Virus record (IMG/VR): IMGVR_UViG_3300033407_000001 | Coordinates: 117,276 to 149,275 of that record | Strand: one strand, 5' to 3' | Origin: a virus | DNA: 32,000 bases | In this document: one piece after another, positions 2,990 to 17,387 of the stretch | Position numbering within the stretch: position 1 is the stretch's first letter | Layout of the letters: every line of letters begins with the position of its first letter | The notes under the pieces: generated by a model | The model's input: the letters and a program-made list of their open reading frames with translations, nothing else | What the model was told of the DNA's origin: nothing | Databases searched by the model: none | Translations under genes and position numbers: made by a program

Positions 2990-3787
2990 CTAGGCGGCTC
3001 TCCGCCTTCTGATGGTTTTATTGGCAATCCGAAGAAATTCGGGTTCATTTGCCTCAAGGAGTAGCTTCTGAGCAAGCATCTGATCTTCGTATGGGAGCCG
3101 GCTATCCGAGTGAATGCAGTAGCTACTGTCAACCTCGCCATCGGCACCGAGTAGTTTCACGTTGCCCTGGAAGCCATAGTCAATGCGATAGACCCGCATG
3201 GACCCATCTTGGCTATGGACAGTGAGATGGAAGCGGTTATCATTCTCCATCTCCTCACGCTGCTGCTCGTTGAGCATCCTGAGAAGTAGCCCGCGAGCCC
3301 TCTGCTCGGCAGATTCCTTGAAGCGCTTCTTGCGGGCATTGTCGCGAACCAGCAGTTGTCGCTTGCGCTCGTACTCGGCTGCCTCCCTAGCAATTTGCTC
3401 AGGTGACTTTTGAGGCCTGCGTGCATACCTCTCAGTGAGGTGCTTATGACGGCATTGAAGCCATCCAGGAGTAGCCCAGACATCATCGCTAGCCCGCGTA
3501 TTTCCAGTATAGGAAACCGTGTAATGGTCCCCGGTACTAGTCGTGACGACAGGGTCAAGCCATCCAGTTGGCCAGTGATCACCCGTCACCGACGTCGTGG
3601 AGCAGGTCTGTGACCAATACCCAAAGCATTTGTCCTGGATATAGCGGATCTTGGCATAGGTCTGATTGGTCAATGGCTGACCAACAAGGTCATTCAGCTC
3701 GCTAGTGGCAGTTTCAACGATGCTTCCAGGAGTCTGAGTACCCTCGTATATGGAGACTATGCGGGATTGATCTATCGGCGGCATCAA
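2990..3787 (-). CDS. hypothetical protein (265 aa)
   Basis: Long ORF with a central R/E/K-rich helical segment. No motif recognised. Confidence 0.65.
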   Translation of the reverse strand: MMPPIDQSRIVSIYEGTQTPGSIVETATSELNDLVGQPLTNQTYAKIRYIQDKCFGYWSQTCSTTSVTGDHWPTGWLDPVVTTSTGDHYTVSYTGNTRASDDVWATPGWLQCRHKHLTERYARRPQKSPEQIAREAAEYERKRQLLVRDNARKKRFKESAEQRARGLLLRMLNEQQREEMENDNRFHLTVHSQDGSMRVYRIDYGFQGNVKLLGADGEVDSSYCIHSDSRLPYEDQMLAQKLLLEANEPEFLRIANKTIRRRRAA

Positions 3788-6534: not shown

Positions 6535-6563
6535 TTTTTCTCGTCGATACCGGCAATTGTCAA
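6535..6563 (-). promoter_or_regulatory. TTGACAAT promoter-like motif upstream of tRNA-Arg(UCU)
   Basis: - strand CAUCTTGACAATTG with the -35 element at 6558-6563, followed by an A/T-rich -10 region. Confidence 0.35.
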
Positions 6564-6949
6564 GATGAGCGGAATCTCTTGCGCACGACATTCTGGAATC
6601 CACTCCTTTGAAAGAGAGTTTCCATGCTCTGTGCGCCATAATCATTCCAGGAATGAATGAGTACCCGATCGGGTCTCTTATCCTTATCGAGGTCCTGGCA
6701 GATAAAGAGAGCGATATGATACCCACTGACATACGGGAGCCCGACTTTATCGGCTATCTCCGAATTCCCGGTACCAAGGTCATGATCTAAGAAGACGATG
6801 TCGAACTTAGGTCCGAAGGTCATCTCCCTAATTACTTCATCGAAGTTGTAGCAATGAACAACCTCCTCATTCCTGAGGATTGAAGCAAAGACATCATGTC
6901 GTTCCTGCTCGTCATCGAGAACGAGGGCTCTCTTCTTTTGCCGGCTCAA
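6560..6949 (-). CDS. CheY-like receiver (REC) domain protein, stand-alone
   Basis: ALVLDDE followed by DIVFLDHDLG, spaced as expected for a receiver-fold acidic pocket. Confidence 0.5.
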   Translation of the reverse strand: MSRQKKRALVLDDEQERHDVFASILRNEEVVHCYNFDEVIREMTFGPKFDIVFLDHDLGTGNSEIADKVGLPYVSGYHIALFICQDLDKDKRPDRVLIHSWNDYGAQSMETLFQRSGFQNVVRKRFRSS

Positions 6950-7185
6950 TTTTTCTTCGGCTTAAGAACCCTGACCTTCAGGGCCCTAGGATCAAAGGAT
7001 CCCCTGTGCAGGTTATGATCTTCATCAAACCAGGCAACCTCAGTTGTTACACCTATGGTTATGGCTCCCTTCTCATCGCTTATGACCGACGGAGAGTTAC
7101 CGGTAACTGTCATCAGCAATTCCTTCGATGATGGAAGGTAGACGATAGCTCCAACAGGGATGGTAGTACTTTTCTTCTTACTCAT
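6946..7185 (-). CDS. DUF2158/YodC-like small protein (79 aa; start trimmed)
   Basis: ..LMTVTG..VAWFDEDHNLHRGSFDPRAL resembles the YodC family. The A of its ATG is A76 of the tRNA-Ser CCA. Confidence 0.5.
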   Translation of the reverse strand: MSKKKSTTIPVGAIVYLPSSKELLMTVTGNSPSVISDEKGAITIGVTTEVAWFDEDHNLHRGSFDPRALKVRVLKPKKN

Positions 7186-7274
7186 GGCGGAGAGAACGAG
7201 GGTCGAACTCGCAAGGACTGTTAAGTCTCGTCCGCTTTCCAAGCGGGTGCCATCACCAATTGGCTTGCCTCTCC
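7185..7274 (-). tRNA. tRNA-Ser(GGA)
   Basis: Class II tRNA: acceptor GGAGAGG/UCUCUCC, 3-bp D stem, anticodon loop UUGGAAA, long variable arm. CCA is encoded. Confidence 0.85.
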
Positions 7275-7520
7275 AAATAGCTTCTCGTGAATATCATAGC
7301 TTGTGACGCCATCTTCATCTTCAAAATGGGCACAGAAATGATCCAATTCACGGCCACACGATGAACAGTCTTGGCCGAATTCGAGATTCTCCCATTCGTA
7401 TTGGGTGATCTCAAATTCACCAGACCCAAGACACTCATCCTGATCTAGATGCCAATCAGGATGACGCCGCCAGGTCCTGGGCCCAACCGGATTTCCGCAG
7501 GTCCAGGTGATCTTTACCAT
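7221..7520 (-). CDS. hypothetical Cys-rich protein (99 aa; start trimmed)
   Basis: The ATG at 7520 overlaps the RF gene's UGA (UGAUG). The last 54 nt overlap tRNA-Ser. Confidence 0.45.
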   Translation of the reverse strand: MVKITWTCGNPVGPRTWRRHPDWHLDQDECLGSGEFEITQYEWENLEFGQDCSSCGRELDHFCAHFEDEDGVTSYDIHEKLFGEASQLVMAPAWKADET

Positions 7521-8186
7521 CACCAGTTCCCCTTCATGTAATCCTTCAGATTCCATTGCTTACCTAAAATATGGTCTACCACGGAACCATCCTGAACCCG
7601 AATTGTTCTGCGCTTGTCAGCTCTCATTCCTGAGCCAATCTGAGATCTCCTATCATTGGCCCTAGAGCTGGCAGCTCTCTCCCTCTGGGCCTCCATAAGC
7701 CTGGCCCGGAGAAGCTCCATGGCCGTCTCCCGGTTGAAATGCTGAGACCTCTCAGACTCACAGCGGACAGAGACCCCGGTTGGAATGTGCGTCAACTGGA
7801 CAGCACTGTCTGTCACGTTGCGATGCTGACCACCAGCGCCTGAGCCTCGACAGGCTTTCCAGGAGATGTCTCTATCACAGATCTTAAGCTCTGAGTGAGT
7901 CGGGATAGACATAACGGCAACCGTGATGGTGCTCGTCTGCCTTCTCCCTTTCTTCTCCGTTGGCGGAACCCGCTGCCAACGATGACCGCCAGACTCATTC
8001 GCAAAAGTCTTCTGAGCCTGCTTGCCTGTTGCCTTGAAGATCAGTAATCCAGGTCGTTCCGTAAGGATTTCGTAGCTAAAGAGATCTCCGTGCTCCAACC
8101 TTCGCGTAGATTGCGAATTGATCCTGCACGAGTAGTTTGGCGTCGTTGCCGCCTTCGGCTGCTCTTATTTCTACGATCACTGACAT
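7520..8186 (-). CDS. RF1-like peptide chain release factor lacking domain 1, with a putative programmed +1 frameshift (join 8186..8079, 8077..7520)
   Basis: Frame A (ATG 8186, with GAGGAGAGG SD) encodes MSVIVEIRAAEGGNDAKLL..YAKVGARRSL and then UAG. Frame B continues SYEILTERPG..ESGGHRWQRVPPTE..SGAGGQHRN... Together they align to RF1 domains 2-4, including the PxT-type loop and GGQ. Confidence 0.75.
8075..8089 (-). promoter_or_regulatory. candidate +1 frameshift site GGAG-AUCU-CUU-UAG-C
   Basis: The - strand reads CGG AGA UCU CUU UAG CUA CGA. E. coli prfB has AGG GGG UAU CUU UGA CUA CGA. Here there is an SD-like GGAG 4 nt before CUU. Confidence 0.6.
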
Positions 8187-8187
8187 A

Positions 8188-8421
8188 TCAACCTCTCCTC
8201 TTTTTCTTTTTCTTATCCGGGAGCGGAATTAGTGCGCCAATTGCCCTGGGCTCCACACCACCCTGAATAAGTCTGAGTTCACGCTGCTCTTGCGTCCATC
8301 TCTGTCGATCTTCTTCTCTCTTCTCAGATGTTTCATTTCCACAATTTTGACAGTACGTGACCAATGAATCGCGGGTCCTGTGTACATCAACGTCGTCGTA
8401 TCCACAAGCTATGCAGCCCAA
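8188..8421 (-). CDS. zinc-ribbon protein with a poly-Lys tail (77 aa)
   Basis: Contains CxxC..CxxC and ends in KKKKKRRG. Its stop lies 1 nt before the RF ATG. Confidence 0.55.
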   Translation of the reverse strand: MGCIACGYDDVDVHRTRDSLVTYCQNCGNETSEKREEDRQRWTQEQRELRLIQGGVEPRAIGALIPLPDKKKKKRRG

Positions 8422-15359: not shown

Positions 15360-15442
15360 TACCGAAGATGGGAGTCGAACCCACACGCCCTTGCGGGCAC
15401 CGGCTTTTGAGACCAGCGTGTCTACCATTCCACCACCTCGGC
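15360..15442 (-). tRNA. tRNA-Leu(CAA)
   Basis: Class II tRNA: GCCGAGG.., GGUGGAAUGGUAGACAC D region, loop CUCAAAA, variable arm UGCCCGCAAGGGCGU. No CCA is encoded. Confidence 0.8.
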
Positions 15443-15515
15443 GTATGCGACGGGACTCGAACCCGCAACGACCCGATTGCTTAAACGGGCGCTCTACCAA
15501 TTGAGCTACGCAAAC
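15442..15515 (-). tRNA. tRNA with an enlarged or bulged anticodon arm (CCCG-UUUAAGCAAU-CGGG); identity unresolved
   Basis: Normal acceptor (one U-U mismatch), GCUC..GAGC D arm and GCGGG-UUCGAGU-CCCGU T arm. Its last nucleotide would be G1 of the next tRNA. Confidence 0.55.
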
Positions 15516-16259: not shown

Positions 16260-16337
16260 TGGCGCAGAGGAATGGAATCGAACCACTGACCTTCCGACTC
16301 CGAGAAGCCGTCTGCTCTACCACTGAGCTACCTCCGC
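16260..16337 (-). tRNA. aberrant tRNA: G3:U70 acceptor with a UCU-type anticodon loop and a 3-bp anticodon stem
   Basis: Acceptor GCGGAGG/CCUCUGC gives G3-U70. Anticodon region is GAC-GGCUUCUCGGA-GUC. There is an 8-nt variable region. CCA is encoded. Confidence 0.6.
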
Positions 16338-17299: not shown

Positions 17300-17304
17300 A
17301 ATAG

Positions 17305-17387
17305 TGCTCAGAAGGGGAGTCGAACCCCTACGCCCTTGCGGGCACTGGCTCCTTAGGCCAGCGTGTCTGCCATTCCACCACCTGAGC
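17305..17387 (-). tRNA. tRNA-Leu(AAG)
   Basis: Class II tRNA and a near-paralog of the one at 15360-15442. Perfect CUGGC/GCCAG stem with loop CUAAGGA (A34). No CCA is encoded. Confidence 0.8.

Follow-up and report, generated by a model that had tools for sequence, protein, structure and literature searches.

A phage RF1-type release factor gene with a probable prfB-type +1 frameshift at a UAG codon

The programmed +1 frameshift in prfB, the gene for release factor (RF) 2, is the textbook case of autoregulation at the level of translation, and to our knowledge this type of frameshift is regarded as unique to RF2. PrfH (RFH), an RF paralogue without domain 1, is paired with RtcB2, and we know of no frameshift in prfH. 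The present analysis concerns an RF gene on the minus strand of a 32,000-nucleotide (nt) stretch of viral DNA (hereafter the window; positions 117,276 to 149,275 of IMG/VR virus record IMGVR_UViG_3300033407_000001). This gene is divided between two reading frames and probably encodes a phage-borne RF1-type factor, consisting of domains 2-4, that is made in full via a prfB-type programmed +1 frameshift and regulated by termination.

In both the E. coli prfB cassette (AGG GGG UAU CUU UGA C) and the phage gene, a P-site CUU codon is followed by an A-site stop codon, the base after the stop (+4) is C, and a Shine-Dalgarno (SD) sequence lies 3 nt upstream. Likewise, the site is found early in a class-I RF gene (codon 26 in prfB, codon 37 in the phage gene), and the unshifted homologs of both have lost the slippery codon. 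However, prfB encodes RF2 instead of an RF1-type factor and carries its site in domain 1, whereas the site of the phage gene falls in domain 2; since the two positions are not homologous, the device is of independent origin. The stop codon differs as well, being TGA in 98.6% of prfB motifs, otherwise TAA and never TAG (PMC12421855), whereas the phage family uses any of the three, with UAG in the window. In a survey covering more than 12,000 bacterial genomes, Prince 2025 found that none of 8,164 prfB motifs contained TAG and that prfA showed no programmed frameshifting (PMC12421855), in agreement with an earlier note on this DNA, made from the sequence alone, which had stated that the device was not known from prfA genes. 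In PRFect/RECODE, CUU-stop sites are listed in prfB alone, and no prior description of a frameshift in a phage RF gene was found in the literature.

Viral RF genes have been reported in other settings. Huge and recoded phages carry RF1 or RF2 among their translation genes, along with tRNAs and transfer-messenger RNA (tmRNA) (Al-Shayeb 2020, PMC7162821; Borges 2021, bioRxiv 10.1101/2021.08.26.457843). These RFs are reported as code-change modules or as part of a translation kit, with no frameshift, in-frame gate or missing domain 1 mentioned. In contrast to recoded phages, the window bears no sign of recoding: none of its 37 ARAGORN-called tRNAs has a stop anticodon and could act as a suppressor, and with the standard code its minus-strand genes can be read contiguously. 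Atkins 2016 (PMC5009743, section 29) cites a giant-virus RF gene expressed via readthrough and frameshifting. This gene resembles the one in the window in being a viral RF that needs recoding at stops and differs in encoding a eukaryotic-type eRF1, in belonging to an amoeba virus and in its unrelated sequence and signals.

The features of the phage gene, each with its basis in brackets, are listed below (ORF, open reading frame).

7520..8186, minus strand: whole RF gene, encoding a 221-amino-acid domain-1-less RF1-type factor in two frames (Pfam and RF1 model match)
8192..8200, minus strand: initiation SD GAGGAGAGG ahead of ATG 8186 (sequence; kept as GAAGGAGAGG in the related loci L084-L086)
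8076..8186, minus strand: ORF1, frame 0, 36 codons plus UAG (start of RF domain 2)
8085..8089, minus strand: internal SD-like GGAG(A), 3 nt before the slippery CUU (SD conservation in relatives)
8075..8081, minus strand: shift heptamer CTT TAG C (P-site Leu CUU, A-site UAG, +4 C)
7520..8077, minus strand: ORF2, +1 frame, residues 37-221 plus TGA 7522-7520 (remainder of domain 2, GGQ-bearing domain 3, domain 4)
7958..7966, minus strand: tripeptide 'anticodon' P74-P75-T76, RF1-type PxT, in HRWQRVPPTEKKGRRQTS (aligned to T. maritima RF1 HRVQRVPVTESGGRIHTS)
7826..7834, minus strand: GGQ peptidyl-tRNA hydrolysis motif, G118-G119-Q120 (invariant in both alignments)

The initiation SD (8200-8192) is strong, and the 36 sense codons that begin with ATG at 8186-8184 encode MSVIVEIRAAEGGNDAKLLVQDQFAIYAKVGARRSL, including the helix alpha-5 tip EIRAAEGGNDA, before the stop codon TAG at 8078-8076. 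Past this TAG, frame 0 holds just 26 further codons, which are not RF-like. The +1 frame is uninterrupted from AGC (8077-8075) to TGA (7522-7520) and reads SYEILTERPG...GGHRWQRVPPTEKKGRRQTS...GAGGQHRN...KGNW. At the junction, GGAGAUCU is followed by CUU UAG C, in the context cGGAGAtct CTT TAG Cta cga. The elements of a prfB-type cassette are present, with GGAG(A) followed by TCT and CTT, with CTT TAG C at 8081-8075 and a +1 continuation behind it, and the register of the internal GGAG(A) matches both the GGAGG of relatives and the AGGGGG of E. coli prfB. The earlier note had described the same layout (ATG at 8186, 36 codons, UAG at 8078-8076, the +1 continuation and the junction), and every one of its sequence statements was borne out by the minus-strand reading and the ORF list.

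Conservation of CUU UAG C and of the upstream GGAG in homologs, which that note had proposed as a check, was examined by scans of IMG/VR, the first yielding 13 related loci and the second 80 (with 316 candidate stretches encoding a relative), and by a script positioning each shift site relative to the EIRAAEGG motif. At 61 distinct homologous sites, a +1 shift is required at the identical codon, 26 codons past the E of EGG. All 61 carry CTT-T and directly behind it a stop codon, followed at +4 by C in 48 cases, G in 10, A in two and T in one. An SD-like motif, defined as GGAG, GAGG, AGGA or GGGGG within 15 nt upstream of the site, is present in 49 of the 61 shifted homologs versus none of the 13 unshifted ones. 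The GGAGG-type SD of relatives sits 3 nt ahead of the slippery codon, and the cassette consensus across the 61 sites, cGGAGGggtCTTTGAC, is nearly the E. coli prfB cassette. The unshifted homologs retain the RRGL-D/N peptide, with its Leu written CTA, TTG or CTC, a respelling that parallels reports on in-frame prfB.

Among the closest relatives of the window (P0001 and P0002, with 81% and 76% amino acid identity), which come from four independent assemblies, all four assemblies retain gcacggagGtGtCTTTAGctac amid many synonymous changes, and CTT TAG CTAC is kept throughout the window clade (four assemblies). When the window is compared with L084, substitutions at codon positions 1/2/3 number 1/2/16 in frame 0 before the site and 8/2/34 in the first 50 +1-frame codons after it, which means that the third-position bias switches from frame 0 to the +1 frame at the site. 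This pattern shows coding (purifying) selection on both parts of the gene. In addition, the nearest database phage record, a 485-kb uncultured phage (LR745208.1), has the matched gene in two pieces, with CGG AGG GGT CTT TGA C at the same codon. Because the same heptamer occurs at the same codon in 61 sites and the third-position bias switches frame with it, a sequencing error or a pseudogene is excluded for practical purposes. The earlier claim of a genuine prfB-style +1 cassette, made up of CUU, an A-site stop with a C behind it and an SD at 3 nt, is supported, and UAG itself is kept in the window clade.

The joined 221-amino-acid protein was compared with the NCBIfam hidden Markov models (HMMs), as had also been suggested, and scored 213.4 bits with RF1, 137.6 with RF2 and 96.3 with PrfH. 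RF1 thereby exceeds RF2 by 76 bits, in line with the earlier view that the factor is RF1-like and neither RF2 nor PrfH. One unbroken alignment that spans the junction pairs residues 2-220 with positions 105-330 of the RF1 model (347 positions), and Pfam recovers only positions 101-194 of the 194-position PCRF profile, together with the RF-1 domain; the whole N-terminal domain 1 is missing, as had been noticed from the sequence. A PDB sequence search with the joined protein returned RF1 chains at about 150 bits, RF2 at no more than 95 and PrfH at 59. An AlphaFold 2 model made from database homologs has a mean predicted local distance difference test (pLDDT) of 82.8, the junction L36|S37 lying in a confident region between helix 14-33 and strand 37-44, and Foldseek matches this model to free RF1 and RF2 with template modelling (TM) scores of 0.83-0.86. 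The RF1-type decoding residues are kept (Gln in RWQR, PxT, Glu and Thr-Ser), as is GGQ, and they make UAA/UAG specificity a plausible prediction for the window factor.

Bacterial RF1 (prfA), the best HMM and PDB match, shares with the window factor the C-terminal part of PCRF, the RF-1 domain, PxT, GGQ and the Gln/Thr residues, with about 40% identity over domains 2-4. Compared with prfA, the window factor lacks about 105 N-terminal residues, has PPT for P(A/V)T and carries short deletions after the junction; lacking domain 1 and scoring under the RF1 (prfA) equivalog cutoff of 400 bits, it is not a prfA equivalog. As for RF2, the loop is PPT instead of SPF and the RF2 model is not the best match. 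PrfH is similar in size, has GGQ and likewise lacks domain 1, but its sequence match is far weaker (96.3 bits on TIGR03072 against a cutoff of 166.65), and the window factor retains the RF1-type decoding loop. By these matches, the factor is an RF of domains 2-4, of RF1 type and without domain 1. All 14 aligned relatives begin at the same point as the window protein, and the truncation is therefore taken to be ancestral to the phage family. Decoding and hydrolysis can proceed without domain 1, whereas the action of RF3 requires it (Baranov 2006, PMC1586002, summarising earlier work); on this basis, its absence should free the factor from RF3 with decoding and hydrolysis retained. A compact, presumably RF3-independent RF1 with a UAG-responsive cassette has potential use in genetic-code engineering.

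For this family, databases hold truncated proteins that consist of ORF2 only. The GTDB species-representative scan gave only ordinary prfA, at no more than 46% identity, among the matches listed. No cultured-phage record with the gene was found, the best matches being uncultured huge-phage assemblies, and in PHROGs only a full-length RF1-like family was found.

With the architecture, its conservation, two-frame coding selection and the RF1-type identity established at the level of sequence, we infer the slip, its competition with termination and the recognition of UAG by the factor itself. After 36 codons, the ribosome would have its P site on CUU, occupied by peptidyl-tRNA-Leu, and its A site on a poorly terminated UAG-C. 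GGAG, three bases upstream, would pair with the 16S anti-SD, tRNA-Leu would re-pair on UUU, and decoding would restart at AGC in the +1 frame. Termination at UAG would compete with this slip and yield a 36-amino-acid dead-end peptide. Output of the factor would go up when RF1-type activity is limiting and down when it is ample, the activity sensed being that of host RF1 and probably that of the phage factor. Since the window factor keeps the RF1-type decoding residues, it should read UAG itself, which would place negative feedback on top of host-RF1 sensing.

The likely role of such a factor would be to top up UAA/UAG termination in the phage, a sensible function given that about one-third of the genes end in UAG and that the phage brings at least 38 tRNAs. 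Among the 72 minus-strand ORFs of at least 40 amino acids in the window, the stop is TAG in 27, TGA in 28 and TAA in 17. The high use of TAG (27/72) accords with the earlier note; its further proposal that many of these stops come from tRNA positions 8-10 accounts for a minor part, as TAG stands at those positions in 21 of the 37 ARAGORN-called tRNAs but supplies the stop of just five of the 27 TAG-ended minus-strand ORFs. If the proposed mechanism is true, the gene would provide the first case of programmed frameshifting for an RF1-type factor, the prfB device having arisen independently in a phage gene, at a non-homologous position and with all three stop codons.

Several observations weigh against this account. 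The internal SD of the window is a 4-nt GGAG(A) core, one base weaker than the GGAGG of its closest relatives, the loop departs from the canonical P(A/V)T, and Gln occupies the position aligned to the RF1 loop His (GRIHTS). Across the 61 sites, the A-site codon is TGA in 44 (72%), TAG in 14 and TAA in three, so that it is mostly UGA, which should lie outside the reading range of an RF1-type PxT factor. On a neighbour-joining tree, members with the three codons are intermingled, with many switches, and in eight members covering all site types the RF1 model exceeds RF2 by 55-95 bits. No link was found across the family between the site codon and the tripeptide decoding loop (variants PPT, PPN, SPT, SPL, PPS and PET) or between the site codon and the stop usage of neighbouring genes (TAG 28% in the TGA and TAG classes alike). 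The site codon is, moreover, coupled to the +1-frame codon of residue 37 (GAC/GAG = UGA, AGC = UAG, AAC = UAA), and conservative D/N/S changes therefore shift it by one step each; this coupling, in which Ser means UAG, is a constraint on the site codon that is not regulatory. Finally, the tripeptide decoding loop is deleted or rewritten in L001, L018/L019, L063 and L024 (HRVQRTSNGRIHSS, HRWQEKSGGRMQTS, HRWQHAPTGKVHTS and HRWMRDRTGKVHTS; RF genes at about 3001-3660), all of which retain GGQ together with the gate, be it frameshift or stop. Such loss in a few relatives hints that strict stop reading is not always required and suggests that some family members may no longer read stop codons canonically.

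Because UGA stands at most sites of an RF1-type family, direct self-regulation is not its general logic. The earlier proposal that UAG had been chosen as the codon of RF1 consequently survives in part: UAG is kept in the window clade, where self-recognition is plausible, and the counts of the family as a whole run against it. What the sequences have in common family-wide is a stop-codon gate that would report termination capacity. The phage factor could close the loop directly at UAG/UAA, by relieving RF2 of UAA stops, or through relaxed specificity. In this respect, the family provides a natural experiment on what the cassette stop senses, the factor itself or host factors.

A related arrangement is found in three unshifted relatives, which have an in-frame stop at the same codon: L006 (TAT TAG ATG), L009 (CTA TGA CTG) and L024 (CTC TGA CTG).

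L006 3001-3654: RF gene with an in-frame stop at the shift codon
L009 3001-3657: RF gene with an in-frame stop at the shift codon
L024 3001-3651: RF gene with an in-frame stop at the shift codon

The L006 contig with 10-kb flanks (L168) has 25 ORFs at 82% coverage, nine of them TAG-ended, and apparently uses the standard code; no suppressor was found among its 15 tRNAs, and the flanking orthologs of L006 and L009 show no in-frame stops. Both halves of these RF genes diverge with a third-position bias. They may be readthrough-gated release factor genes, resembling a readthrough design whose prediction predates the sequencing of prfB and which has been reported as unknown (PMC5009743); an in-frame-stop readthrough design for RF genes has been described as never observed (Atkins 2016, PMC5009743). 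Taking shifted and unshifted members together, we give roughly even chances to a large, hitherto undescribed phage family of RF1-type factors without domain 1, gated by a stop at codon 37 in three interconvertible forms: a +1 shift at CUU-UGA/UAG/UAA, in-frame UAG/UGA readthrough as in L006, L009 and L024, and no gate. If true, it would contain the first natural RF gene with the long-predicted in-frame-stop design, and the gate would be a general sensor of the termination capacity of the infected cell, possibly with a relaxed-specificity factor.

In three further loci (L002, L074 and L078), an in-frame TGA lies elsewhere in the RF gene, and these phages are probably TGA-recoded. At L083 5500-5573, near an RF homolog having an in-frame TGA, a tRNA bears the amber suppressor anticodon CTA, and at L078 1490-1566 a tRNA was called with a 4-base anticodon, ccta; the L083 and L078 phages are both probably recoded.

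Among the alternatives to the proposed autoregulated frameshift, the most substantial, although distinctly less probable than the account given above, is that the frameshift is real and the gate reports the capacity of host RFs only (RF1 at UAG, RF2 at UGA). Any feedback would then be indirect, for example when extra RF1-type activity takes UAA stops and frees host RF2. The variable site codon fits this view, as do its flips between close relatives sharing PPT (L045 TAG, L056 TGA and L065 TAG; L005 TGA and L018 TAG), the RF1 type of all members tested and the equal TAG share of neighbouring genes in the TGA and TAG classes. With a UAG site and RF1-type decoding residues in the window, however, it is hard to picture how the factor would avoid its own site. 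A factor of relaxed or omnipotent stop specificity, giving true autoregulation at any site stop throughout the family, would explain why the three stop codons are interchangeable, and the tripeptide, unusually variable for RF1, as well as the alternation of His and Gln at the position aligned to the RF1 loop His point the same way. We regard this as unlikely: the residues equivalent to Gln181, PxT and Thr194 are RF1-like, the case for it is drawn from sequence, and we know of no natural omnipotent bacterial-type RF.

Less probable again is a PrfH-like ribosome-rescue factor within an RNA-damage or translation-repair island. Such a role would agree with the absence of domain 1, as in PrfH, with the lack of a PxT loop in some relatives, with the location of the gene in a tRNA array beside a cREC_REC protein and with the tmRNA genes that adjoin relatives. 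The PrfH score is nevertheless less than half that of RF1 and under its own cutoff, the decoding residues of the window factor are RF1-like, and the cREC neighbour is syntenic in no other locus. Moreover, no RtcB match was obtained among the 20 window ORFs scanned, a set that is not exhaustive, and the upstream 77-amino-acid ORF has no Pfam or PHROG match. Finally, it appears very improbable that the gene is a pseudogene or the product of a 1-nt assembly error, that a recoded phage reads its UAG as sense, or that the two ORFs yield separate polypeptides. Gene callers do annotate ORF2 alone (e.g., the NCBI 'peptide chain release factor-like protein' of 181 amino acids), and a TTG at 8098 could initiate it. 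The recurrence of one heptamer at one codon in 61 distinct sequences and the purifying selection on both parts speak against error or decay; reading UAG as sense would leave the ribosome in the wrong frame, and the standard code gives well-formed genes in the window. Two polypeptides are hard to reconcile with the unshifted homologs, which are single polypeptides, and with ORF1 encoding the helix alpha-5 tip, which RF1 needs for decoding. Six-frame or greedy ORF coverage under alternative codes was tried as a measure of recoding and set aside as non-discriminating in short tRNA-rich loci; against recoding stand the standard-code genes of the window and the lack of a suppressor among its called tRNAs.

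The 37 ARAGORN-called tRNAs and the genes of the window lie on a single strand. A tRNA-Ser(GGA) with encoded CCA at 7185-7274 (minus strand), 246 nt downstream of the RF gene, falls below the default ARAGORN and Rfam gathering thresholds and was recovered with aragorn -ps90; it shares about 83% identity with Streptomyces phage tRNA-Ser, overlaps a 111-amino-acid ORF (7221-7556) at the 3' end of the latter, and has a tRNA-Ser(gga) counterpart in the same position in L003 and L018. About 570 nt downstream of the RF gene, with two small predicted ORFs and this tRNA in between, a gene at 6560-6949 (minus strand) encodes a 129-amino-acid protein with a cyclic-phosphate processing receiver domain (cREC_REC, PF20274, E = 1e-11); it adjoins the RF gene in no other locus examined. 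Most flanking ORFs are common to the closest clade only or unshared, and no conserved pairing of the PrfH/RtcB type was seen. Upstream of the RF operon, a 58-nt tRNA-like match at 8731-8788 (minus strand), whose 29 bits equal the Rfam gathering threshold, may be a tRNA remnant.

Expanded anticodon loops are typical of +1 frameshift-suppressor tRNAs. One tRNA of the window, called as 'tRNA-Leu(aag)' at 15440-15515 (minus strand), is a class-I tRNA of 76 nt whose anticodon loop is expanded to 9-10 nt, TTTAAGCAA. Relatives have an expanded-loop tRNA(AAG) with a CYTAAGCAA loop (L003 983-1060, L005 510-587 and L018 1451-1525), conserved directly 5' of tRNA-Leu(caa); for L005 and L018, ARAGORN gives its anticodon as the four bases 'taag'. 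An AAG anticodon reads CUU, which is also the slippery codon, and a tie between this tRNA and the RF frameshift is a candidate only. Another tRNA, at 16260-16337 (minus strand), was called by ARAGORN with a 4-base anticodon, ctcg, and scores 47 bits as an Rfam tRNA. A34 anticodons are unusual in bacterial-type tRNA sets; here they occur as Leu-AAG and Ile-AAT at 15440-15515 and 17304-17387 of the window (minus strand), and at L003 659-735 and L014 6378-6452.

Two related loci with dense tRNA arrays have a tmRNA gene as the direct neighbour of the RF gene (L021 3675-4026 and L016 2212-2570); in L021, 25 tRNA and tmRNA genes are packed into 6.6 kb. The closest relatives L084 and L086, which are 7-kb NCBI metagenome-assembled genome (MAG) contigs, carry the annotation 'peptide chain release factor-like protein' and are binned in two Planctomycetota MAGs, either a weak hint at the host or a case of mis-binning. 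In L087, the gene for a T4-type major capsid protein (PF07068 Gp23) at 7180-8337 is separated from the RF gene by about 550 nt and lends support to a phage origin.

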